64,000 nucleotides of DNA from Nibricoccus sp. (lineage in GTDB: Bacteria; Verrucomicrobiota; Verrucomicrobiia; Opitutales; Opitutaceae), in contig JASGHG010000001.1 in assembly GCA_047602425.1 (NCBI GenBank), positions 2,944,001-3,008,000 of the forward strand, written 5' to 3'. Under the pieces are notes generated by a model that worked only from the letters and a program-made list of their open reading frames with translations, ran no database searches and had not been told where the DNA came from. How positions within the stretch are numbered: the stretch's first letter is position 1; each line of letters starts with the position of its first letter. Made by a program: the position numbers and the translations under genes. Of the stretch, positions 28,637-40,575 are shown in pieces.

Positions 28637-28678
28637 TGCTTTGCGCTCCGCGGGATTTGCGCGAACGTGTGCATTCTC

Positions 28679-29600
28679 ATGCCTGCCGTACCGATCCAAT
28701 TCTACAATCGCTACACCAAATCGCTCGAGACCGAGGCCGTCTACGGCGAGGCCTGGCTGCGCTTTGCGTACGAAAATCCCGCGGGTCGTCTGATGGTGTG
28801 GGCGTTTGCCCAGCGGGCCTTGTTCTCGCGATACTTTGGATGGCGAATGGGCCGGCAATACAGCCAGTTCAAGGTTCTGCCGTTCATCGTTAAGTATAAT
28901 CTCGATGTGGAGGAATTTGCGAAGAAGGCCTACGATTACGCGACCTTCAATGAATTTTTCACCCGCGCGTTGAAAAAGGGAGCGCGTCCCATAGCCGAAG
29001 GCGATCGCGTGGCGGTTTTTCCCGCCGACGGACGGCATTTGGCCTTTCCGAATATTGACCTCGCGGAAGGCTTTTACGTGAAGGGCGCAAAGTTTAGCCT
29101 TGCCGAGTTGTTCGGTGAAGAAAGCTTGCCGCAGGATCAGCAAGTTCTAACCCTGAAATATGCCGGTGGGGCGATGGTGATTTCGCGGCTGTGTCCGGTG
29201 GATTATCACCGTTTTCATTTCCCCTGTGCCGGTGTGCCCGGCGAGCCGCGGCTGATCGACGGACCGCTTTTTTCGGTCAGCCCGATCGCGCTGCGCCGCA
29301 AAATCAATTATCTGGTGCGCAACAAGCGCAAACTGACCGAGCTGGAATCGCCGGTTTTTGGCTCTGTGGCTTGTTTCGAAGTGGGTGCGACGAATGTCGG
29401 CAGCATTGTGCACACATTTGTGCCGGGCCGGTCCGGTGGCGAAGGGCGCGGAAAAGGGCCTGTTTAAATTTGGCGGTTCCTGCACGATCACCCTGTTCCA
29501 GGCCGGGCGCATCCGTTTCGACGAGGATGTGGTTGCGCAAAGTCGCGAGTGCATCGAGACCTACGCGCGCATGGGCGACCGGATGGGCGAGGCGCCGTAA
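28679..29600 (+). pseudogene. psd: Phosphatidylserine decarboxylase with +1 frameshift near 29432 (pseudogene or sequencing error)
   Basis: FNEFFTR, PADG, RLCPVDYHRFHFP, EVGATNVGSI in one frame; KGAEKGLFKFGGSC in the next frame. Confidence 0.85.
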
Positions 29601-29664: not shown

Positions 29665-29748
29665 GCCCGGGTGGTGGAATGGCAGACACGAAGGTCTTAG
29701 AAGCCTTTGCCGTAAGGTGTGCAGGTTCGAGTCCTGTCCCGGGCACCA
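29665..29748 (+). tRNA. tRNA-Leu (anticodon TAG)
   Basis: Acceptor GCCCGGG/CCCGGGC, D-loop TGGCAGA, anticodon arm AAGGT-CTTAGAA-GCCTT, long variable arm, GGTTCGAGTCC, encoded CCA. Confidence 0.96.
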
Positions 29749-29769
29749 ATTACGGAGGGAGAGCTATAG

Positions 29770-29985
29770 CTTTGCGTTGATTCTGTCCGCTTTCTGGAAA
29801 TCCCTGAAATAGCCAGCAATAGCTTAAATTAAGTTATGGATCAACGACTTGGGAGAGTGAAAATCCGCGCAGGGCGATTTCGCCTTTGCGTTGATTCTGT
29901 CCACTTCTCACTTTGCGTTTGTGCTTTGTAAGTGGTTGGCCAGCTTGAAAAATCGCCCGAAAAAGTGGACAGAATCAACGCAAAG
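29770..29985. repeat. Left-end putative transposase-binding sites, three copies of CTTTGCGTTGATTCTGTCCRCTT
   Basis: 29770-29792 and 29884-29906 forward; 29963-29985 inverted. Confidence 0.88.
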
Positions 29986-30065
29986 GTCTGCCGATACACA
30001 AACAGTTGTTTTTTACAGAGGTGGCGGATTTGCTCACCGCTTGCAGGTGAGGTGCAAGGGCGTTG

Positions 30066-30716
30066 CTAGCCTGTCTGTAGATGCGATTTTGGATCGGATT
30101 TGCGTAGGTCGTTTTGAGAACGACGTGAAGCGATCTTCCGATTCGCAGGTAATTGTTCGAAGTCTTCAGTTTCCATTTTTGCTACAGCCCAGTTGCCCAA
30201 CATTTTTACCCAAAAAACTTTGGATCGCTCATTCATCTTCACGTTTTTGAGGACGTCTTGGATTGCCTCCATGAGCTGACGGGAAGTCATTTTCTGACAG
30301 AGAAGGGCAACGACGACTGTAATTTGGGTGTTTTCCTCAAGCTCGTTGCCACGTGGTAGCTCATTCGGTTCCTTTCCTCCAGTGATATTCGGCCGGATTT
30401 GTTTTACCCCAGCCATCAGCATTGAGCCGAACATTTCAGGAAGAGTAGAGAGCGCCTCCGCCAAGCTCTTTTCCTTGGGAGGCTGGATTTCTCCTGTTTC
30501 AAGCCAAGTCGAGTCGCACCCTAACGCCTGAGCCAAAGCGGTAATTGTCGGTTTCGAAGTGACATAGTCACGCTCAGATTCCATGCGGCCAATTGCTGCT
30601 GCCGAAAGACCTACTTTTTCCGCAAGCATTCGTTGCGTAAGTTTCTTTTCCTGACGTAGCTCGCGAACACGGTCCCCAACAGTCTGCTTACTGGGTGGTT
30701 TTTTTTGTTGCGTCAT
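30066..30716 (-). CDS. CI-like XRE HTH repressor
   Basis: VGDRVRELRQEKKLTQRMLAEKVGLSAAAIGRMES...LAQALGCDSTWLETG. Confidence 0.88.
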   Translation of the reverse strand: MTQQKKPPSKQTVGDRVRELRQEKKLTQRMLAEKVGLSAAAIGRMESERDYVTSKPTITALAQALGCDSTWLETGEIQPPKEKSLAEALSTLPEMFGSMLMAGVKQIRPNITGGKEPNELPRGNELEENTQITVVVALLCQKMTSRQLMEAIQDVLKNVKMNERSKVFWVKMLGNWAVAKMETEDFEQLPANRKIASRRSQNDLRKSDPKSHLQTG

Positions 30717-30725
30717 GTCTACTGA

Positions 30726-30742
30726 GTAAGCATGTTGCTTAC
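30726..30742. promoter_or_regulatory. Palindromic operator GTAAGCA-TGT-TGCTTAC
   Basis: Perfect 7-bp inverted repeat in the 31-bp gap between divergent HTH genes; extra half-site at 30685-30691. Confidence 0.65.
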
Positions 30743-30747
30743 GTAAT

Positions 30748-30978
30748 ATGGTTGCCGCACCTGAGAAAAACTTCAAGCCCCGAGCGCAAACGCCCTTTGC
30801 GGCCGTACTGGCTTTGGAGTTTCAACGGACCAAAGGGCATATTCATCGTATCTGCACGGGAGAGAGAAAATCCCCGCTGCGCGAGCGTATTTTGGCGCGC
30901 CAGGCGGAACTTATGCACAGCGCGGCCATGGCTCCGGTGCCGGCGGAAACCTCAACCGATTCGAACCATGGAAACTGA
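30748..30978 (+). CDS. Cro/Ner-like small HTH protein
   Basis: LALEFQRTKGHIHRICTGERKS; divergent from the repressor. Confidence 0.6.
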   Translation: MVAAPEKNFKPRAQTPFAAVLALEFQRTKGHIHRICTGERKSPLRERILARQAELMHSAAMAPVPAETSTDSNHGN

Positions 30979-31186
30979 ACTCAATTCGAGCAGCCGAAAA
31001 GCCCGCCTCGTGCAGAAGCTCACCGCGATCTTCGCCGACGGCCCTCTTGTCGCGGCCCAAAATGCCGCGTCGGGAAATCCCCGGCTCGTGAGCGCAATCG
31101 GCCCCGAGCAGGCCTTCGATCCGATCCTGACCCAGGAGCGCGAGAGAACGCCGGGCCTCATTGCGGCGCACAACATCAAGGACTGA
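30968..31186 (+). CDS. Hypothetical protein (72 aa)
   Basis: ATG at 30968 overlapping previous ORF; co-oriented. Confidence 0.5.
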   Translation: METELNSSSRKARLVQKLTAIFADGPLVAAQNAASGNPRLVSAIGPEQAFDPILTQERERTPGLIAAHNIKD

Positions 31187-31221
31187 TCCTGCCAATTTCC
31201 CAAGTAACCGAACCAATTTTT

Positions 31222-31911
31222 ATGAAGAGAAACCAAGCACTTCCCACCGATCAGGCCCTTGACGCCTGCATCGCCGAGATTGCCACTCACCAAGAGGCCT
31301 ATCTCCAGCAACGAAAGGAATACCGCGCAGCATTGACCATGGAGCCGAAGCTCGTGCAGGACATCGAACGCCGGCAGGCCAGCTGCAAACTCGGAGATAT
31401 GCAGGAGGCCCGCGAAATCTGTATTGCGAAGGAGGCGCTGCTCAATGTCCGCAAACGGGCGGCCACGCTTACGCCCAACCCAAGTGACGATCTGAACATT
31501 TGGAGGGCTCGCTGGGACCGCGCGTTGCCGCTGGTTCGCCCCGAAGGCTACCGGCTCCTGGAACGCATGCGGGCGGAGTTCACCGCCAAATTGGTGCCGA
31601 TCATCGGTGCTGACGATGCCGGCAAGCTCGTTGAGTCGCTCACGCCCGTTCAACTTCTGGGCGAAACGCTCCGCGTCGGCTTTTTGATCCCCGGCGAGCC
31701 CGACTCTTATCGCGAAGCTTGCATTCGGATGATGGAACTCATCCGGGCGATGCGGAGTGATGGATTCGATGCCCACAAATGGAGCAAGGGCGAGCATCGC
31801 CTGATCAGATTTCTGCCGTCGAAATCGGCTCAATCCGAGCCGGCCCTCACCCAGGCCCTTGTCGAAGTGCCCGCCGCCGATGAGGAAGCGGAATCCGAAC
31901 AGCCGGAGTGA
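31222..31911 (+). CDS. Hypothetical alpha-helical protein
   Basis: 229-aa ORF in element operon; N-terminal coiled-coil character. Confidence 0.7.
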   Translation: MKRNQALPTDQALDACIAEIATHQEAYLQQRKEYRAALTMEPKLVQDIERRQASCKLGDMQEAREICIAKEALLNVRKRAATLTPNPSDDLNIWRARWDRALPLVRPEGYRLLERMRAEFTAKLVPIIGADDAGKLVESLTPVQLLGETLRVGFLIPGEPDSYREACIRMMELIRAMRSDGFDAHKWSKGEHRLIRFLPSKSAQSEPALTQALVEVPAADEEAESEQPE

Positions 31912-31998
31912 GCTTGTCCGCCGGCTTCCAATTCTTCACCGCAACCAATCAATCCACTTTCGACGCCCAGCAATGACGTCGTTTCGACATGGAGAAAC

Positions 31999-32034
31999 AG
32001 CGGGGCAGGGCTGACAGGCTCTGCCCCGCTTTTT
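31999..32034 (+). terminator. Intrinsic terminator inside the element's rightward operon
   Basis: AGCGGGGCAGGGC-loop-GCTCTGCCCCGCT then TTTT. Confidence 0.7.
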
Positions 32035-32063
32035 CCGACCGAAAAAACCAATCCCAGCTCACC

Positions 32064-32363
32064 ATGAAAAAACCGGTCACACGCTCGCCGCTCGATTTGC
32101 TGCCGCTACATCAGAAACAGGCTGTCATGGCCTGGCTGACGACGGGTGGTAAGCACGGCCAGGGCATGAGCTACGAGGACGCCAGCGCGAAGCTGAAGGC
32201 TGAGTTCGGCGTGCGTGCCTCTGCAACGGCTCTGCATGCCTTCTACCACCGCCATCGCGGCGCGCCGACTACGCCGCAGGTGCAGACCGCGTTCGATGCC
32301 AAATCGAACGTACTCACAATTTCGATACAGATAAACCTCAACCTCAATCCCCAAAAAACATGA
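32064..32363 (+). CDS. Mu gp27/DUF3486-like small DNA-binding protein
   Basis: RSPLDLLP...AWL...SYEDASAKLKAEFGVRASATALHAFY resembles the N-terminus of the family (by eye). Confidence 0.55.
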   Translation: MKKPVTRSPLDLLPLHQKQAVMAWLTTGGKHGQGMSYEDASAKLKAEFGVRASATALHAFYHRHRGAPTTPQVQTAFDAKSNVLTISIQINLNLNPQKT

Positions 32364-32926
32364 ACCCTACGACTGAAACAGCGACTGCTCCCACCCGTGC
32401 CCCCGAATGCGATGGCGACTGGAAACACCTCGAATTCAATGCCCGCCAAAAAATCGAGACACGCCTATTAATCGGCGCGCATCTGTTCAACGAAGCATTG
32501 AAAGGCAGTGTCGCAGACATCCAGAGCGCTGCTTTTAGAATTGAAGAAGCCGGGCTTTTTGAGGGCACGTATTACGCTGGCGACAGTTGCACCATCAAAA
32601 ATATTATACGGTTGGTAGAAACGCTGAATGGCGGATTGAACGAAGCCTTTCCCCTCTGCTACGCCGCACTGCCCGCGCATCTGAATGTCAATTTTATGCC
32701 GTTCGACCAGGCGGTTTCCTTTTTTAGGCAAGAGGTATTTTGGACAACCAAAGGTGTCGAACACATGCACCGGTGCGAGGAGATGATTTCCAAGATGCGT
32801 GAAGTCTACGCTTTGGTTCGTAGGGTGATCGATGAAATCGATCACTCGACGGACGATGGAATTTACCAGGTGCGCAACAGTGTACCTGCGATCCCGGCGA
32901 ATCTATTCTTCGAAAAAGCTGTGTGA
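32360..32926 (+). CDS. Hypothetical protein
   Basis: 188 aa; ATGA overlap with upstream stop. Confidence 0.7.
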   Translation: MNPTTETATAPTRAPECDGDWKHLEFNARQKIETRLLIGAHLFNEALKGSVADIQSAAFRIEEAGLFEGTYYAGDSCTIKNIIRLVETLNGGLNEAFPLCYAALPAHLNVNFMPFDQAVSFFRQEVFWTTKGVEHMHRCEEMISKMREVYALVRRVIDEIDHSTDDGIYQVRNSVPAIPANLFFEKAV

Positions 32927-32927
32927 C

Positions 32928-33164
32928 ATGCCTCAACCGCAACCAGACACCGAGATCGTGACCCCGTGGTTTATCTTCACGCATGAGCGTGGCTACGTGG
33001 TGAACGCCGAGACCGTGACGAAGGCCATTTCGCAATGGCGAAAGAGTCACAAAATCGGCTATATCTGCGGGGTGATTCGCGGTGCGGTTGCGGAGGGGCA
33101 GCTGGGGGCGGTCAGCGCCACGGCAATTTATGGTGTGATTTGCTGCGGAGGAAAAACGCCATGA
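32928..33164 (+). CDS. Hypothetical protein (78 aa)
   Basis: Fills the gap exactly; stop overlaps next ATG. Confidence 0.6.
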   Translation: MPQPQPDTEIVTPWFIFTHERGYVVNAETVTKAISQWRKSHKIGYICGVIRGAVAEGQLGAVSATAIYGVICCGGKTP

Positions 33165-34723
33165 GCGAACCAGGCCTAAACTACAAAGTCACGGTGTCCG
33201 GTGCGTCGCAAGGCGCGGCCGATGTCAGCAAGCTCGCTGACGCCTCCGGCAAAGTCGCTGACGCCACCGGCAAGGCTGCGCCGCAAGCGAAAGGCCTTGC
33301 CGATGCGATCTCTTCGCTCGGTAGCCGTAACAACCCCGCGAAGGACGCCCTTGAGGGTCTGAGCAGCGCTGCCCGTGGTGGAGAGGGGTCAGTCTTCGGC
33401 CTCACGAAGGCCTTCCGCGCATTTCGGGAACTCATCAACGGAGGCTTCGCGGCCCTCGGCCCTGGTGGTATTCTAGTTGCCGGATTGGGTCTGGTGATCG
33501 GTTTGCTACCGAAGATCATCGAGCTGTTTAAAGGTACGAGCAAATCAGCCGAAGAACTTGCCGCGGAGTCGAAGAAGGCAGCCGACGAGGTGAAGGAACT
33601 GGGCCAGCAACGAATGGAGGCGTTGGCCGCTGGTTTCGCCGCCGCCAATGAAGCGGCAAAGAAGGCAAACGCGGAGTTCGAACGCGCACTTAACCTTCAG
33701 AAGCGTCTAAACGAGGCTGCCCGTAATGCAGAACTCGCCGAAAATCCCGATAAGGCCAAAGAGATCAACGCGAAATACGATCAGAAAAACAAGGCGCTTA
33801 CCCTCACTGCAAAAGAATTTGCAGCCTCCCAAGCAGATGAGGTGGTCAAAGCTGCCGCTTCAAATCAAGAGGATGCTTTCAACGCCGAAGTCAGGGCTAA
33901 AAAAGAACTCATCGAACTGCTAAAAAAAGAGGGTGAGTTAAAAAAACTGAATGCCCTTATTGAGCAAAATAAGTATACATCCGAACTCTCGAAGGAGAGC
34001 GTAGCCGAGCAGAAAAAGCGCGAGGATCAAGCGAAAGCGTTACAAAATCAAATCGCCAAAAAACCGGAGATTGAAGCGGAAGTGGCGGCTCGTATAAAAG
34101 AGTCCCAGCGAGCCGCCGACAACCTCACCAAAGCCAAGGATACCCAATCCACCGCACGAGCGGAATTGAAGACTGAGGAAATTGGTCAGAAGGCTGAAGC
34201 GGACAGCAGCCGTAGAATAGAAAATGTGGAGGAAAAAAAGCGAATCAGCGAACAACTCAGCGATGCCACAAAGCGCAGGCAGAATGCCGGAGATCGGTCT
34301 GAGTTCCTTGCGGCAGCTCAGGATGAAATTGCGGCGCGCAACGCGCTGAAGAAACCTGCTGGGAGAGGAAAGTCTGAAGCGGCGAACGCAGAGCAAGCGC
34401 CCGCACTCGAAAAAGCAGCTGAGGAAATTGCAGATAAAAAAGTTGATGACAGACCGCTGAAAGAGGCCGCGAGTGCTATCTCAACGGCAATCGAACAGAG
34501 CGTGAGCGATAGTAATCGAGCCATCAGTGAGGGTGCTCAAGCCATTCGTGCCGCAGTGGGCGAAAGAATGCAGGTGCCAGATTTAGAGCCGTTGGTGAGC
34601 ACCGTGAAACAAGGTTTTAGCACGGTAAATAATGCGATGCGTAATATGCAGCAGCAGATAAACCAGAATAGCTATGCCATCAGGGAGATCATCAATCAGA
34701 TGTCATCGGCGAGGAACAAATAG
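33161..34723 (+). CDS. Tail tape-measure-like coiled-coil protein (520 aa)
   Basis: GGAGGA RBS; LNYKVTVSGA start, Ala/Gly-rich region, hydrophobic GPGGILVAGLGLVIGLL, long A/E/K helical region. Confidence 0.6.
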   Translation: MSEPGLNYKVTVSGASQGAADVSKLADASGKVADATGKAAPQAKGLADAISSLGSRNNPAKDALEGLSSAARGGEGSVFGLTKAFRAFRELINGGFAALGPGGILVAGLGLVIGLLPKIIELFKGTSKSAEELAAESKKAADEVKELGQQRMEALAAGFAAANEAAKKANAEFERALNLQKRLNEAARNAELAENPDKAKEINAKYDQKNKALTLTAKEFAASQADEVVKAAASNQEDAFNAEVRAKKELIELLKKEGELKKLNALIEQNKYTSELSKESVAEQKKREDQAKALQNQIAKKPEIEAEVAARIKESQRAADNLTKAKDTQSTARAELKTEEIGQKAEADSSRRIENVEEKKRISEQLSDATKRRQNAGDRSEFLAAAQDEIAARNALKKPAGRGKSEAANAEQAPALEKAAEEIADKKVDDRPLKEAASAISTAIEQSVSDSNRAISEGAQAIRAAVGERMQVPDLEPLVSTVKQGFSTVNNAMRNMQQQINQNSYAIREIINQMSSARNK

Positions 34724-36906
34724 TGAACACTGAGCGAGCAACGATCATCCCCGCCTCTCCGGCTTGGAATCGGCTAAACGCCCGAACCAAGCAACAGGCG
34801 CATAAGTTGCGGCAGGCGCTTGCGTCTGCACTGGAGTTGCACCGCAGTGGCCGCTGGGGGCGCGCTGAAATCGAATCTGCGGGGCTTCGTGACTACCAAC
34901 AGGTATTTGGGCATGCCATCACGCCTCGGCATTTCTGGAGGCTTTTGGATCTCGTGGTCGAACGCGATGCTGGTCGCAACCAGTTCGATAATTTGGGGTT
35001 TTATTTGCCCGGCCGCATTGTCCGCAAGCGCCCGGCCGATTCGCTCGACCGCTATGCAAAGCAGCTGCCGCGACTCTGCACCACGGTTGCAGGGTGCGCA
35101 AATATTGCGGAGCCCACCGCGCAGGAAATCCTTTTGGTGTGGGATGCGGCCTGTTCTGAATATCAGGCGATGATCGCTGTAGGGATGACTGACGGGAAAG
35201 CCCGCCGCCTCGTAGTTGCTGCGCTTGATGTCAGCGGGCTGCCGCTGGCTCTGACGAGGGCCGCACTCAGGCGCAGTTTCTGCCGCAAGCTCGATCGCTG
35301 GATTGAGGGCGGGCGCAAACCAGCCGCCATCCGCGATCAGCGGGAGTTGAAGTGCGGCCGTAAACTTCAAGCAGTGCCGACGCCTGAAGATTTGAATTTG
35401 CTGACGGCGCGAGCCCTGCACCTACGCAGCGTGCCAGCGGCTTGGCGTGAGTTGCTCCATGCGGGGGAATTGTCTCCAGCCGTGACACAGAGCTACATCA
35501 GCCAGACGGCGAGCAAGTCCTATTGTCCGGAGTCGATCCGAAGGGTGATTGTTCATCGCATTGGCCTCGTCGACGACATTCACCACGGCCCAAGGCAAGC
35601 CACATTGAACGGGGCGCATATCACGCGCGATTGGTCGGATGTTGCGCCTGGGGATTGGCAGCAAGCCGACGACGTGACGTTGGAGGTATACTATTGGTTT
35701 AAGGACGTCAGCGGCGTGCCGCAGGTTCTGCGCGGGCAGTTCCTTTTGATGATCGATCTTCGCAGTCTACGGATTCTGAATTTCGCCCTGCACGCGGAAA
35801 ACAACTACAATGCCAAGGTGATTCGTGGCCTGATGTTGCGTACGCATGACGCTTACGGTCTACCCCGGCGAGGCTATGCGTTTGGAAAAGGAATTTGGAA
35901 AAGCTCGCGACTGGTTAAGGGCCGTGAACTTCCGAAGGGAGACGAAATCCCCAACGAAGAAACCGAACTGGGCTTCCGCGATTTCGCGTTGGAGTTTAGG
36001 CACGCCAAGCTCCCTAGGGCGAAGCCAATCGAGCGCGTAATTGGGCTGTTGCAAGCCAGACTGCGCGATCAACCAGGCTGGGTTGGTCCAAACGAAATGA
36101 AGGAAAAATTTGAGCGAGTGCAGGAGCGTCTGCTCGCTGCCCGTGGCGGTTCGGTGCATCCCTCGAAATTCTTTTTGCATCGCGATGAGTGGTTTGAGCG
36201 GCTTCAGGAAGTTTGCGATGAGTACAACAATGAGCCGCAGCAAGGCCGCATGCTCAATGGGTTGTCTCCCCGGCAATATTGGGAGGCCAATTTTGACTAC
36301 GCCCGTCCGTTGGTGAAACTGGGGCAGGGTACTCGCTACCTTCTGGCAAATCATCGTCGCCCTGAAAAGGTCACGCGCAACGGAATCCGGATCGTCGTCG
36401 GCAAAGAGATCTGCAATTTCAAGAGTCCTGAGCTGGGCCATCACGTTGGGAAAATTGTCCAAGTGTACTTCGATCCTGAGGACATGAGCAGCGTATTTGT
36501 AATGGTAGATTGTGAGGGCAAAAGTGCGTTGGTTGTACCACGTGAAAAGGGTGTTCCCGCCATGGACGCGACGGATGAGCAACTACGCACTGCTCAGGGA
36601 ATTAATGAGGCGATGAATCAACCTGCTCGCACCCTGTATGCTGAGATAAAAACATATTTCCCGAAAAATGGTCCGTCACTCTTCCGCCGGGAGATCGCTG
36701 ACGCTGTGACCGTTGAGCTGGGTCAGGACATCGCTGCCGAACAAGACGCTATCCGCCGTGAGAAAACGCAACAGGTGCAGGACGCACGTTCGCTGAAACG
36801 GCGCCGGCGTGAATTGGGGCTTCGCCCTCAGTCAGAACAGATCTCTACTGAGCGGCAGTTGGCTGCGCTAAAACTTTTTGAGGAGGCTCGCCGTGACGAC
36901 ACGTAA
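34723..36906 (+). CDS. MuA/TnsB-like DDE transposase
   Basis: WQQADD(316); IDLRSLRILNF; YGLP; PRAKPIE(437)R; YNNEPQ...GLSP; KVTRNGI; VYFDPEDMS. Confidence 0.9.
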   Translation: MNTERATIIPASPAWNRLNARTKQQAHKLRQALASALELHRSGRWGRAEIESAGLRDYQQVFGHAITPRHFWRLLDLVVERDAGRNQFDNLGFYLPGRIVRKRPADSLDRYAKQLPRLCTTVAGCANIAEPTAQEILLVWDAACSEYQAMIAVGMTDGKARRLVVAALDVSGLPLALTRAALRRSFCRKLDRWIEGGRKPAAIRDQRELKCGRKLQAVPTPEDLNLLTARALHLRSVPAAWRELLHAGELSPAVTQSYISQTASKSYCPESIRRVIVHRIGLVDDIHHGPRQATLNGAHITRDWSDVAPGDWQQADDVTLEVYYWFKDVSGVPQVLRGQFLLMIDLRSLRILNFALHAENNYNAKVIRGLMLRTHDAYGLPRRGYAFGKGIWKSSRLVKGRELPKGDEIPNEETELGFRDFALEFRHAKLPRAKPIERVIGLLQARLRDQPGWVGPNEMKEKFERVQERLLAARGGSVHPSKFFLHRDEWFERLQEVCDEYNNEPQQGRMLNGLSPRQYWEANFDYARPLVKLGQGTRYLLANHRRPEKVTRNGIRIVVGKEICNFKSPELGHHVGKIVQVYFDPEDMSSVFVMVDCEGKSALVVPREKGVPAMDATDEQLRTAQGINEAMNQPARTLYAEIKTYFPKNGPSLFRREIADAVTVELGQDIAAEQDAIRREKTQQVQDARSLKRRRRELGLRPQSEQISTERQLAALKLFEEARRDDT

Positions 36907-38383
36907 ACAAGACCCAGCAACAAAAGAATTCCGGCAAGACGCCTATGCGTCGTCAGCCGAGTACGAACGCGGCATCCTCGGAAACCGGGTGGCCGCGCGG
37001 TGCCAGAAGCTTACCGATCCCGAAGAGATCGCCATGCTTTGGTGGTTGCAGCAGGTTTCATGGAGAGACGGCGGTATTGAGAAATTCACAGAGCAGTTTC
37101 TGGTTGAAAATGAAACCATGCTCGGGACGCCATCGATGCATCGATTTGGGATGAAAAAAGGGCAGGTCTACAACGCTGCCCAGGTGCGCAAAGTCCGGTC
37201 GGAACTAGGGGCGCCTGAGTGCATGGAGTTCCCATTGAGAGACGATAAAAGGGCGGATCGCCTAGCAGATTTTCTAGACTTGCCGGACTACGAGGATTTG
37301 ACGGTGTACCCGGAAAGTTACCCAGCATCGGAATTTCTGGATGTTTGTACAGGTTCGCTGCGTCAGTTTTCCAACTGGCTCAAGGGAATGTTGGTCGATC
37401 CCCAAAGTGGCAGCCTTCGGAGTGGATATTGGAGCATGTCTGGTTTCTGGGATGCGCTCTGCAAATGGCGGGATCGCGAGCGTGAAGTTGCGCGAGCCGC
37501 CATTGTCGAAACCGACGTTACGCGCCGGGTATTCGAAGAGTTGGATTTCGCTTACGAGACGCGGAGTTTTGTTCTGATCGAAGGCCGTGAGGGAATCGGC
37601 AAGAGCGAGGCGGCGCGTTGTTGGTGCGACCAGCGGCCCGGCCAAGCCATCTACGTTCGGTTGGAGTCAGGCAGCGATGAGACGACGCTTTATCGCTCGA
37701 TTGCCCGCGAGATCGGAACGGCGTGCAGCTACCAACGAAAAGCCGTTGAGATGCGAGCCCGGATTCAAGACGCACTGCAACCTGGTCACCTGATGCTCGT
37801 GCTCGACGAAGCGCATTTTCTGTGGCCAACCAGTGCCCGCAGTGAACGCACCACGCCCAAGCGCCTGGACTGGCTGAGGACGGCATTGATCGATTTTAAC
37901 GTCCCGATTGCGCTCGTGAGTACACCGCAATTTTTCACGCAACAATGCGACCGATTTAGAAAGGCGGGATGGAATTCGAATCAAATCCAGCGCAGGCTCA
38001 CTCGTTTGGTTCGGTTGCCTGAATCTCTGAGCAAGGAGGATGTTCTCGGCGTTGTCGCGCGCAACTTCCCGGAGGTCCCTCTACGTACAGCCAAAGAGAT
38101 TGCGGCAGTTGCCCTCTTGAGCGTCGGTTATCTCACGACCATCGTGAGCCTGCGAAAGCGATTTGATTTTCTTAGTTCGCGCCGGCCGTCAACCGCGCCA
38201 GCCGATCTATTGCGCGAGATTCTGGATGAGAAATCCGCTGAACTTGATTTGGCCGTGCAGCCCGTCGAAAAACCCGTTGCAACGCCAACGCAGGCCATTT
38301 GCAGGGTGCGTCCAGGGGCCCCGCAGGGCCGTGGAAACTTTGCGCCTCCGCTGATTGTTCAGCCTGAGTTGAGCGTCGTTTGA
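36893..38383 (+). CDS. MuB/TnsC-like AAA+ transposition ATPase with long N-terminal extension
   Basis: AGGAGG RBS then GTG; Walker A GREGIGKS; Walker B LVLDEAH; QIQRR. Confidence 0.88.
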   Translation: MTTRKQDPATKEFRQDAYASSAEYERGILGNRVAARCQKLTDPEEIAMLWWLQQVSWRDGGIEKFTEQFLVENETMLGTPSMHRFGMKKGQVYNAAQVRKVRSELGAPECMEFPLRDDKRADRLADFLDLPDYEDLTVYPESYPASEFLDVCTGSLRQFSNWLKGMLVDPQSGSLRSGYWSMSGFWDALCKWRDREREVARAAIVETDVTRRVFEELDFAYETRSFVLIEGREGIGKSEAARCWCDQRPGQAIYVRLESGSDETTLYRSIAREIGTACSYQRKAVEMRARIQDALQPGHLMLVLDEAHFLWPTSARSERTTPKRLDWLRTALIDFNVPIALVSTPQFFTQQCDRFRKAGWNSNQIQRRLTRLVRLPESLSKEDVLGVVARNFPEVPLRTAKEIAAVALLSVGYLTTIVSLRKRFDFLSSRRPSTAPADLLREILDEKSAELDLAVQPVEKPVATPTQAICRVRPGAPQGRGNFAPPLIVQPELSVV

Positions 38384-38475
38384 CTTTTGTTTTCGAACCA
38401 CTCCCGGTTTGCGTTTTTTCACGCAATCGCCGGGAGTTACCTCTTACCCTGATGTCGCGGACATTTTGCTATTAA

Positions 38476-38504
38476 AAAGCGGACAGAATCAAAACGAAGA
38501 TACA
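38476..38504. repeat. Right terminal inverted repeat
   Basis: Reverse complement TGTATCTTCGTTTTGATTCTGTCCGCTTT aligns with left end TATAGCTTTGCGTTGATTCTGTCCGCTTT. Confidence 0.88.
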
Positions 38505-38553
38505 GAGCTCCAAGTGGACCTTGTACAATGCCCCATATGCGGTAGGCTGTTTG

Positions 38554-39066
38554 GTGAGCAAAGCTTTCACTAAAGAAGACGACGGGGGCCAACCGCCACT
38601 CGTAGCACGGCTTCAATCACCACTGAGGTCAGGCGAAAGAAATTACCTGACTCCGGCGGGTGCAAAGAAACTACGCGAGGAACTGGAGCAATTAGCCCAC
38701 GTAGAGCGTCCTTTCCTCCTGGCGGCTGCACGCACGGACGATCAGGCCAAGCAGCAGCTTGCGGTGCTGGACCAACGTCTCGCCTATCTGGAGGAAAGTC
38801 TGCGGACTGCCGAAGTGCAGCCGGCGCCGGTGGGGGAAGAGAACCGTGTGCGGTTTGGTGCGAGTGTAACGGTTAAGGAGAATTCCGGCGAAACAACGAC
38901 CTATCGTCTGGTTGGGGTCGATGAAACGGATCTAGATCGCAACTGGGTGAGCTGGCAATCGCCGTTGGCGCGCGCGCTACTTAACCGGCAGCTGGGTGAA
39001 CGTGTGACTTTCACCTTTCCCGCGGGAAAGTCAGAGCTTGAGATTACGAAGATCGAATACTTGTAA
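38554..39066 (+). CDS. GreA/GreB-family elongation factor
   Basis: NYLTPAG; VRFGASV; YRLVGVDE; VSWQSPLARAL. Confidence 0.88.
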   Translation: MSKAFTKEDDGGQPPLVARLQSPLRSGERNYLTPAGAKKLREELEQLAHVERPFLLAAARTDDQAKQQLAVLDQRLAYLEESLRTAEVQPAPVGEENRVRFGASVTVKENSGETTTYRLVGVDETDLDRNWVSWQSPLARALLNRQLGERVTFTFPAGKSELEITKIEYL

Positions 39067-39102
39067 CATCACTTCTCACTCAAACATATACAAACGGTAA
39101 AA

Positions 39103-39190
39103 GGTAGGGACGACCCGCCGGGTCGTCCGTCAACGTTGTTCCCCGATGGCTCGTGCACAACAGCGGTCGGCCCGGCGGTCCGACCCTACC
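39103..39190. repeat. GTAG-type REP doublet (REPIN)
   Basis: GGTAGGGACGACCCGCCGGGTCGTCCG and inverted CGGTCGGCCCGGCGGTCCGACCCTACC. Confidence 0.85.
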
Positions 39191-39411
39191 CATCGAACAC
39201 CGGCATTATTATACGTTGGAAGGAGAAACTCTATTAGCCATCGTTGTAACGTCCCACCCGAGATGAGTGCGACGTGTGATCTTAGCGAAAGCGGGATAAA
39301 TCCGGAGCAAGCTGGTCGCGTTGCACCAATCGGGCTCTGCAGACTTTTCCCGTATAGGGGCACCTTGCGTCGACTCATTGCAACCGGACCGTCTCATTTC
39401 GGTCTATCGCA

Positions 39412-40509
39412 ATGATGCCCTCCGAGCACGCTGCCACTTTGGAAAAAATTCCTGTCGCCGACGGAAAACTAAGCGCTAAGGAGGCGCATCTTCGGTACGT
39501 GTCGGACCGCGCAGCGGGATTTTCGCGGCGAAAGCAAGGAGACCGGATCACCTATTTTGACCAGCACGGGCGGCGGTTGACAGATGCAGCGGAAATTTCG
39601 CGGATCCGTGCACTGGCCATTCCACCGGCTTGGGATGGGGTCTGGATTTGCCCGCATGCGCACGGGCATGTACAGGCGACCGGGCGCGATGCGCGGGGGA
39701 GGAAGCAATACCGTTACCATCCCGAGTGGCGGCGTGTGCGGGATCATGCCAAATATGATCACCTCCTAGCCTTCGCTCATGCGCTCCCCAAGATCCGGCG
39801 CCGGGTCGCAAATGATCTCCGTCGTCGCGGTCTTGGGCGGGACAAGGTCCTTGCGGCGATGGTCCGTTTGCTTGAGACAACGCTGATCCGTGTCGGGAAT
39901 GAGCAATACCTCAAGCAAAACCATTCAGTTGGACTAAGCACCCTTCGCGACCGACACGTGCGGGTGAGCAAGGGCACGGTGCATTTCTCGTTTCGTGGCA
40001 AGAGCGGCAAGGAACATGAGATCGACCTCGACGACCCAGGCTTGGCGCGCATCGTGCGGCGGTTACGGGAAATTCCCGGTCAGGAATTGTTTCAGTACAT
40101 TGACGAAAACGGAACGTCACAAAAAATTTCTTCGACCGACATCAACGCCTACCTCCACGAAATAGCGGGGGCGGAGTTTTCCGCGAAGGATTTCCGGACC
40201 TGGGCGGCGACCGTACACGCGGCGCGCGCGCTTGCAGCCACACCAGCTTTTCGCACGGATCGCGAAGCGCGGCACAATGTTGCAGCCGCCATCCGGAGCG
40301 TCGCCGAACAGCTGAGGAATACCCCGGCAATCTGCCGGAAATCCTACGTGCATCCGGCAGTGGTTGAAGGCTATCTCGCCCGGCGTATTCTAAAACTGGT
40401 TACAAACAATACCGAATCCGCGAAACCAGCCCCTCGTTTCGGTCTCAGTGCCGAAGAACGAGCCTTGTGCACATTTCTCCGAGCGGCTGCTCGCTCCGCG
40501 CAGAGATGA
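39412..40509 (+). CDS. Bacterial DNA topoisomerase IB
   Basis: IPPAWDGVWIC; GRKQYRYH; IRVGN; GKSGK; KDFRTW; NTPAICRKSYVHP. Confidence 0.93.
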   Translation: MMPSEHAATLEKIPVADGKLSAKEAHLRYVSDRAAGFSRRKQGDRITYFDQHGRRLTDAAEISRIRALAIPPAWDGVWICPHAHGHVQATGRDARGRKQYRYHPEWRRVRDHAKYDHLLAFAHALPKIRRRVANDLRRRGLGRDKVLAAMVRLLETTLIRVGNEQYLKQNHSVGLSTLRDRHVRVSKGTVHFSFRGKSGKEHEIDLDDPGLARIVRRLREIPGQELFQYIDENGTSQKISSTDINAYLHEIAGAEFSAKDFRTWAATVHAARALAATPAFRTDREARHNVAAAIRSVAEQLRNTPAICRKSYVHPAVVEGYLARRILKLVTNNTESAKPAPRFGLSAEERALCTFLRAAARSAQR

Positions 40510-40575
40510 AAGCGGTGTTTACTCTCCAACTCCGACTTGTCGCACACCGAACTCGTGGTAAATGTGATTACTATC

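Follow-up and report, generated by a model that had tools for sequence, protein, structure and literature searches.

A family of tRNA-homing, Mu-derived transposons in Verrucomicrobiota, proposed to live as phage satellites

The window analysed here is a stretch of 64,000 nucleotides from the closed 5.16-Mb genome of Nibricoccus sp. (Opitutaceae, Verrucomicrobiota; assembly GCA_047602425.1, contig JASGHG010000001.1, positions 2,944,001 to 3,008,000), and it holds an 8,740-bp element at 29765-38504 with inverted ends and the bases GAGC at both flanks. An earlier note, made from the sequence alone, had described inverted ends with a flanking direct repeat, a divergent repressor pair, and a rightward run of overlapping or abutting genes ending in a transposase and an ATPase, and closer analysis bears this out. 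A 36-nt inverted repeat spans 29758-29793 and 38476-38511, with the true element boundaries inside it at 29765 and 38504; HTH_3, phrog_310 and phrog_296 matches identify repressor, transposase and ATPase; and the gene junctions from 32064 onward are offset by -4, +1, -4, -1 and -14. Likewise, Pfam and PHROG scans of the 10 element open reading frames (ORFs) gave no match to a capsid, portal, large terminase, lysis or integrase gene, as had been read by eye. The earlier note was silent on the main feature of the locus, a tRNA-Leu gene beside the left end, and on a glycine at a conserved catalytic glutamate of the transposase. Below, G000 denotes the window's own genome, other G-numbers other genomes, and L-numbers the loci of relatives. 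The features of the element are as follows.

29665-29748, + strand: host tRNA-Leu(TAG), the target (ARAGORN); the element starts 16 bp past the CCA and 39 nt past the T-loop TTCGA
29761-29764, + strand: left 4-bp target-site duplication, GAGC
29765-29793, + strand: left end, first putative transposase-binding site (L1); degenerate terminus, TA.. in place of TG.., a trait of several relatives too
29884-29906, + strand: L2, second copy of the end motif, direct
29963-29986, - strand: L3, third copy of the end motif, inverted
30066-30716, - strand: CI-like XRE/HTH_3 repressor, 216 amino acids (aa); HTH_3 E 2.8e-12
30748-30978, + strand: Cro/Ner-like protein, 76 aa; clusters with 23 loci, several of which match repressor PHROGs, and has no match itself
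30968-31186, + strand: 72-aa ORF, possibly not a gene; searches found it no relative
31222-31911, + strand: 229-aa helical protein; aligns loosely (~19%) with a family that closely follows Cro in sister elements
32064-32363, + strand: truncated Mu gp27/small-terminase-like protein, 99 aa; N-terminal part only, the C terminus differs
32360-32926, + strand: 188-aa helical protein of no family, common to sister elements; no match in the Atlas
32928-33164, + strand: 78-aa protein common to L025 and L029
33161-34723, + strand: tape-measure-like protein, 520 aa; rich in Ala, with a coiled coil and a single hydrophobic segment; its link to PHROG tape measures is indirect
34723-36906, + strand: MuA-related transposase, 727 aa; Mu-transpos_C 2.7e-7, phrog_310 6e-24; Gly388 in place of Glu
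36893-38383, + strand: MuB-fold AAA+ ATPase, 496 aa; AAA_22 2.6e-16, phrog_296 5e-18; N-terminal domain of ~180 aa
38476-38504, - strand: right end, TGTAT.. terminus and end motif
38505-38508, + strand: right 4-bp target-site duplication, GAGC

The 23-nt end motif thus has two further copies within the left end, direct at 29884 and inverted at 29963, and the inverted third site was found again in 23 of 28 elements that could be mapped in full. By tblastn and blastn the element is the sole copy in G000. At least 150 homologs of its transposase exist, and all named ones belong to Verrucomicrobiota. Profile searches supplied 51 genome loci, two viral loci from IMG/VR (virion origin established for neither) and the best 80 of 95 metagenome loci, which came to 117 after de-duplication and with the window added.

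Both ends and flanks were mapped in 28 elements, and a tRNA gene lies at the left end in 23 of these, at the right end in three and at neither in two. The resulting figure of 26 of 28 elements adjoining a tRNA 3' end is partly circular, because the matrices used to find ends were seeded from tRNA-adjacent ends. The target duplication is 4 bp long in 20 of the 28 and 5 bp in none. When single ends are counted, the T-loop motif stands 30-45 nt away from 28 of 33 left ends and from 11 of 73 right ends (three of these 11 matches are not tRNAs and were dropped). In 33 of 39 motif matches the element starts 36-39 nt from TTCGA, where about 0.011 per end would be expected by chance, and the overall range is 34-42 nt; insertion falls 11-21 nt past the tRNA end.

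Owing to the circular seeding, two less circular tests were carried out. Upstream extension of 18 loci by up to 19 kb revealed a tRNA in eight, and in seven the best left-end match lies 13-17 nt past it; the duplications match in L031, L042 and L046, agree at three of four bases in G068b, and mismatch in L045. The remaining 10 extended loci have no tRNA, which, like the seeding, weighs against the account proposed below. In a phylum-wide draw, the N-terminal domain of the ATPase occurred in six of 401 Verrucomicrobiota genomes, G000 among them; four of the five non-self matches were examined, the fifth being weak and broken. All four new elements lie 36-37 nt from a T-loop, at a tRNA-Met, a tRNA-Leu, a tRNA-Arg and a tmRNA (the left ends at the last two were read by eye), and the duplications match in both elements whose right end was mapped.

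Targets across the family include Leu, Arg, Met, Val, Ala, Gly, His, Glu and Lys tRNAs as well as tmRNA. Close relatives occupy different tRNAs in a FastTree tree, a sign that the T-arm they have in common, not the anticodon, is the feature recognised. An att duplication of the integrase type was considered and rejected: no tRNA fragment longer than 13 nt was found inside the 28 elements, and none longer than 9 nt beyond their far ends, so that a tRNA piece is repeated in neither place and integrase recombination does not account for the insertions. At the same 13-nt limit no internal guide matching the tRNA was found, and the 5-bp duplication that the window alone would allow (GAGCT is ambiguous) was rejected on the duplications of the relatives. 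Pfam scans found no TniQ match in the window ORFs or in 150 cargo ORFs; a genome-wide TniQ search of G000 was also blank, as was its control. No Cas family matched among the scanned ORFs of the window and of the cargo, though no search aimed at a structured guide RNA within the element was made. No gene occurs in the cargo of every element.

The native context of the site can be seen in congeners. Four same-genus genomes were searched by pattern and the tRNA-Leu(TAG) was located in three; in two of them it is directly followed by a glyoxalase-like gene (at 40537 in the window), so that the site is empty there, and in the third an IS-like ORF follows the tRNA. Most of the 34 carrier genomes hold one copy, and none more than three places. 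The earlier suggestion that the element might replicate by Mu-style transposition was not upheld, given a family that is site-specific, mostly single copy, and flanked by 4-bp rather than 5-bp duplications. As far as comparative genomics can establish it, these are DDE-type insertions at a specific site behind tRNA and tmRNA genes, with a 4-bp duplication and no recognised selector, and we hold with great confidence that they form a tRNA-homing, TniQ-free transposon family derived from Mu-like ancestors.

Within the transposase family, D316/D317 and E437 are invariant, and the second catalytic position is Glu in 46 of 47 sequences. The window transposase alone has Gly (Gly388, codon at 35884) where its 86%-identical relatives and related prophage transposases carry Glu; the triad D316/317-E388-E437 is one that we take to be catalytic from motif position relative to MuA and TnsB. 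With glycine replacing the second catalytic acid, the element in the window is probably inactive and immobile on its own, unless the base is a sequencing error. Before the catalytic core lie some 300 aa without an assigned fold. The transposase profile had no match to E 10 among PDB sequences and none among 50,697 phage records, and the nearest transposase of a full prophage is only 29% identical over 280 aa.

The partner ATPase has a core closest to MuB, which is its best match by profile (E 1.9e-10), Foldseek and VIA (Z 19.7, root-mean-square deviation (rmsd) 3.2, 232 residues aligned), ahead of ShTnsC at Z 16.4. Residues 24-202 form an extra N-terminal domain that is confidently modelled (pLDDT 92) and whose profile gathers 824 clusters at 50% identity; it is missing from the ATPases, 337-338 aa long, that three full Mu-like prophages of Verrucomicrobia encode. 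Foldseek returned nothing under E 0.001 for this domain from PDB or BFVD, and nothing usable came from the Atlas. The weak top rows are helix-turn-helix folds of the lambda-repressor/POU type, including the N-terminal domain of MuB itself (Z 4.0, rmsd 3.4, 62 aligned), in alignments that span only 60-75 residues and are scattered over the domain. As a lead only, the model may be read as a MuB-type helix-turn-helix carrying a large insertion of ~85 aa.

An 11-row sister clade with the same enzymes bears on what this domain might do. No member of it carries a tRNA label in the FastTree tree, which has no outgroup. Among 18 distant tRNA-type members the inserted segment of the N-domain shares 24-44% identity with the window's, a figure that falls to 16-22% in 10 of the 11 non-tRNA members, whereas the ATPase core does not fall in this way (30-43% versus 28-36%). 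We consider it probable that the N-domain is the target selector: Mu and Tn7-like systems choose their target through the ATPase, according to the available part of PMC10293859, and, compared with related prophages, the domain is the only clear addition. Targeting could instead lie with the transposase itself, for which the stretch of unassigned fold before its catalytic core would offer room, or with a host factor at tRNA 3' ends such as a terminator-associated or nucleoid protein. The spacing does vary by several bases, as such a view would allow, and the non-tRNA clade keeps a recognisable N-domain while inserting intergenically near gene starts; set against the loss of similarity in the inserted segment and the precedent of ATPase-led target choice, we judge this alternative the less likely one. 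The case for the N-domain is itself weakened on several sides. Its best VIA match reaches only Z 5.0, and all fold matches are at Z 5 or less, below typical background. The divergence pattern depends on one split in the tree, and it is suggestive only, because the transposase shifts too: the non-tRNA clade has lost 12 of 39 conserved columns in the N-domain, 10 of 71 in the core and 38 of 160 in the transposase.

The sister clade and other variants deserve description in their own right. L060, L062 and L133 have 4-bp duplications at intergenic sites, and the members L048, L058, L060, L070, L121, L125, L146 and L148, like L019, lie between genes and near gene starts. L060 and L019 both adjoin mraZ, L146 and L148 lie upstream of what is presumably a nitroreductase gene, and L125 upstream of a presumed superoxide dismutase-like gene. 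Rfam had no match at the non-tRNA insertion sites, and this clade possibly follows a second targeting rule. Another clade (L052, L056, L064, L066 and L131) has its right end facing the tRNA, and in its two complete members the tape measure is on the repressor strand. At L149 (1-13282), two transposase-ATPase pairs stand back to back in opposite orientation near a tRNA-Leu. Short derivatives (L040, of 3.5 kb, L041, L095, L104, L154 and L211) have kept both ends or the tRNA junction and lost most cargo.

Most of the loci scanned also carry phage structural genes. In a PHROG scan of 300 ORFs from 36 loci (150 of 153 candidates in one set and 150 of 361 in another, ORFs below 60 aa left out), 27 of the 36 loci had a virion-gene match at E <=0.01. 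These were tape measures (13), major capsid proteins (12; of HK97, phrog_283 and Mu type), Mu I-type proteases (5), portals (3), gp27/small terminases (2), neck proteins (2) and a scaffold (1). No large terminase, tail tube, sheath, fibre, lysis, integrase or primase match occurred among the 300 ORFs, no primase or replicase matched in the window, and many cargo ORFs are without assignment. Judged by composition, 22 of the 28 mapped elements encode a long, Ala-rich protein that resembles tape measures. Compared with full Mu-like prophages of G008 and other genomes, cargo tape measures reach 38-50% and portal, protease and capsid proteins 27-64%, and several cargo genes are closest to Mu-like prophage genes of the same bacterial family. 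Cargo pairs of 62-97% identity have a median ratio of nonsynonymous to synonymous substitution (dN/dS) of 0.19, with none of 28 at 0.7 or above, and core pairs 0.14; these 28 were the computable pairs out of 31, some are not independent, and no tape measure is among them.

For the window itself, the gp27-like label proposed earlier is supported: over 61 aa the 99-aa gene has 39% identity (E 2e-13) with a phrog_426 gene in a full Mu-like prophage of G008, which sits in gp27 position directly upstream of the prophage large terminase. The A and B proteins of that prophage have no detectable similarity to those of the element. A comparison of the gp27-like family with PDB gave chance matches only. 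The tape-measure label fared less well, in that an indirect and weak profile link through L105 was found and a direct family match was not.

Some elements carry other genes. HEPN and NYN nuclease genes lie near left ends and RadC-like genes occur in several elements (L102 510-1439, L038 5886-6749, and L063, L076, L111 and L122); these are possibly defence cargo.

We propose that these elements are undescribed site-specific transposons, descended from Mu-like phages of Verrucomicrobia, that live as phage satellites, and we would put the probability of this whole account at about 0.58. As comparative genomics shows, the MuA-like transposase and MuB-fold ATPase place the element behind a tRNA or tmRNA gene, 36-39 nt downstream of its T-loop, so that the gene stays intact and a 4-bp duplication is left at the insertion. 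Probably the extra N-domain of the ATPase reads the conserved DNA of the T-arm and sets the spacing, as no TniQ/TnsD, Cas or integrase was found to do so. The CI/Cro pair would keep the rightward operon silent until infection by, or induction of, a Mu-like siphophage; the operon's satellite versions of virion proteins (in the window, putatively the truncated gp27/small-terminase-like and the tape-measure-like protein) would then redirect packaging and tail assembly to the element, spoil helper particles, or both, and the transposase, last in the same operon, would move the element. Use of a helper phage seems somewhat more likely than not, and packaging by the helper is something that we infer. 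A more specific form of the account, in which the ATPase alone reads the universal T-arm sequence through its new N-domain and so directs integration at safe sites by two proteins without TniQ, and in which the elements are the first transposable phage satellites, carried in Mu-like helper particles to which the satellite contributes its own tape measure, capsid or portal, is put forward tentatively, at somewhat less than even odds.

Several observations pull against a satellite life. The Cro-like, gp27-like and tape-measure-like ORFs of the window have no direct Pfam or PHROG match and take their labels from relatives. The 520-aa protein is linked by profile to L025, L089 and L027 and weakly to L105 (E 4.6e-5), which itself has a weak tape-measure match, and the profile made from strongly annotated tape measures gave no match to it. 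Cargo varies widely among elements, and L038, L040 and L041 are without any. The complete Mu-like prophage that was to be looked for in the same genome was not found: G000 yielded neither a second copy nor a helper prophage in searches for Terminase_6N, TerL_ATPase, Phage_portal and phrog_10, whose controls worked, and a Portal_Mu search was blank, as was its control. A Mu-type portal occurs in only 10 of 38 carrier genomes, with two or three of those in or near elements. No replication gene was recognised that would supply enough copies for packaging. Full Mu-like prophages that would be candidate helpers were seen in G008, a genome of the same family (contig C1 at ~1.82-1.85 Mb, 5.12-5.15 Mb and 6.96 Mb); one of them is present twice with identical scores.

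An account without preferential packaging would have a tRNA-homing transposon carry purely defensive virion decoys that poison the assembly of Mu-like phages, in the manner of Tab or Tai, and spread by transposition onto conjugative DNA or the tRNA gene of a passing prophage, or by natural transformation. Each element does have a different and incomplete virion set that cannot build anything; the gp27-like gene retains only its N-terminal ~60 aa, copies are duplicated or truncated in L106 and L019, no replication gene is recognised, and a few elements bear the HEPN and NYN genes of defence type. Moreover, Tab, a Mu-like prophage protein, already offers a case of blocked tail assembly in the available part of PMC10884400. 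Yet a CI/Cro switch that co-transcribes virion genes with the transposase fits mobilisation triggered by a helper better than constitutive defence, the sizes of 22 of the 28 mapped elements fall within 9.7-13.7 kb as if limited by a capsid, and in L049 and L063 purifying selection acts on intact protease-capsid-portal sets, so that we regard pure defence as rather unlikely.

Still less credit, indeed very little, is due to the already disfavoured view that the elements are decaying remnants of site-specific Mu-like prophages, passively mobilised with leftover virion genes. Homology of the cargo to Mu-like prophage genes would suit it, as would broken transposases (Gly388 in the window; frameshifts in L045 and L072) and short derivatives such as the 3.5-kb L040. 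The element had earlier been taken for an evolved small element rather than prophage debris, a view that full-length prophages as the only homologs, with a unique deletion here, or cargo unlike phage genes would have contradicted. Neither was found: no full-length prophage with this transposase appeared in ~135 loci, 18 of them extended by up to 19 kb upstream, and the relatives are small elements in their own right, 3.5-13.7 kb long in the 28 mapped cases and ~15 kb in L210. The cargo is phage-like, mixes HK97-type and Mu-type head genes and is under purifying selection; the gene order, with the transposase last, is unlike that of Mu; and the nearest prophage transposase is distant, with an ATPase that has no N-domain. 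The contig stops at the right end of the element in five of 81 loci (four distinct), which is too few to show variable flanks.

Outside the element, a GreA/GreB-like gene (38521-39066) and a type IB topoisomerase gene (39412-40509) lie between it and the glyoxalase-like gene. Since the latter adjoins the tRNA in two congeners, window positions 38505-40536 look like more foreign DNA. On the other side, a phosphatidylserine decarboxylase gene (28667-29600) is apparently frameshifted near 29440, its likely tail being in the ORF at 29358-29600. Elsewhere in G000, contig C1 has four shorter IS-like transposases that match phrog_310 (326853, 3860766, 4544236 and 4744970) and are unrelated to the element by tblastn. 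Some 40 atypical tRNA genes outside the window, mostly with a GGTGCRA-type T-loop and grouped in two near-duplicate sets, look like a large tRNA array.

Searches of open-licence PMC and bioRxiv texts turned up no account of the family; subscription journals or supplements, for example that of PMC10293859, could hold a mention. With Mu and the Saltoviridae it shares a DDE-type transposase with the Mu C-terminal domain, a MuB-fold ATPase, spaced left-end sites, a divergent repressor pair, and gp27-, I-protease-, portal- and tape-measure-like genes. Unlike Mu, of ~35-40 kb, the elements measure 3.5-15 kb, have no large terminase, tail or lysis genes that we could find, place A and B last in the operon, occupy a fixed site behind a tRNA with a 4-bp rather than 5-bp duplication, occur mostly once per genome, and encode an ATPase of ~500 rather than ~310-340 aa. 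Mu-like transposons with CRISPR targeting feature in the available part of a review (PMC11656645). Homing to tRNA genes is dependent on TnsD and falls 30-33 nt downstream of the tRNA end in CyCAST, and the Tn7 clade is defined by TniQ/TnsD, as far as the available part of PMC10293859 goes. Like the tRNA-homing CRISPR-associated transposons (CAST) I-B2 and I-D, the present family combines a transposase with an AAA+ ATPase, a measured distance 3' of an intact tRNA and an orientation bias. It differs from them in that no TniQ/TnsD, TnsA or Cas was found, the ATPase, although the core is homologous to TnsB and TnsC, scores nearer MuB than ShTnsC, insertion falls 11-21 nt past the tRNA end of many tRNA types and tmRNA, and the cargo is of virion type; its 4-bp duplication also sets it apart from the 5-bp duplication of Tn7-like transposons.

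PICIs (chromosomal islands inducible by phages) and cf-PICIs are ~10-15 kb long and tRNA-associated, with a repressor switch, a small-terminase-like gene and, in some, capsid, protease and portal genes, and they integrate by a tyrosine integrase with duplication of an att core. The present elements resemble them in small size, a tRNA site, a divergent repressor pair and the presence of small-terminase-like and, in some, capsid, protease or portal genes, but no integrase or att core duplication was found and no primase or replicase recognised, a complete head module with both terminases never occurs, and transposition takes the place of excision. PLEs use a recombinase. PLE11 makes chimeric tails with its own functional tape measure (PMC12987554, available part), and EPIPs, of ~11 kb, encode a serine integrase, a small terminase and a tape measure (PMC12822802, available part). 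The element is like both in encoding a tape-measure or tape-measure-like protein; unlike either, it has a transposase and no recombinase match, and its hosts and helpers differ. Its incomplete set of virion genes, related to those of a putative helper type, is a likeness to satellites in general, which by function are induced by a helper phage and packaged into its particles. The two-gene module of transposase and ATPase recalls IstA and IstB of IS21, in which 4-bp duplications are common; unlike IS21 (2-2.5 kb), the family matches AAA_22/TniB rather than IstB and has larger enzymes, a passenger operon, a repressor switch and site specificity.

The element departs in defining features from Mu-like phages, Tn7-like elements, PICIs and EPIPs. 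Site-specific transposons of the Mu/Tn7 line, as far as they are known, depend on a dedicated selector, be it TniQ/TnsD, TnsE, TnsF or a Cas complex, and we know of no phage satellite that integrates other than with a recombinase; the present family departs from both rules together. If the account is true, an AAA+ ATPase would have a new way of choosing its target, the family would be the first dedicated parasites of Mu-like phages, and it would show how random replicative transposition can turn into homing to a specific site. And if two proteins suffice to place ~10 kb behind nearly any tRNA, they would amount to a minimal, host-independent system for safe-harbour integration.

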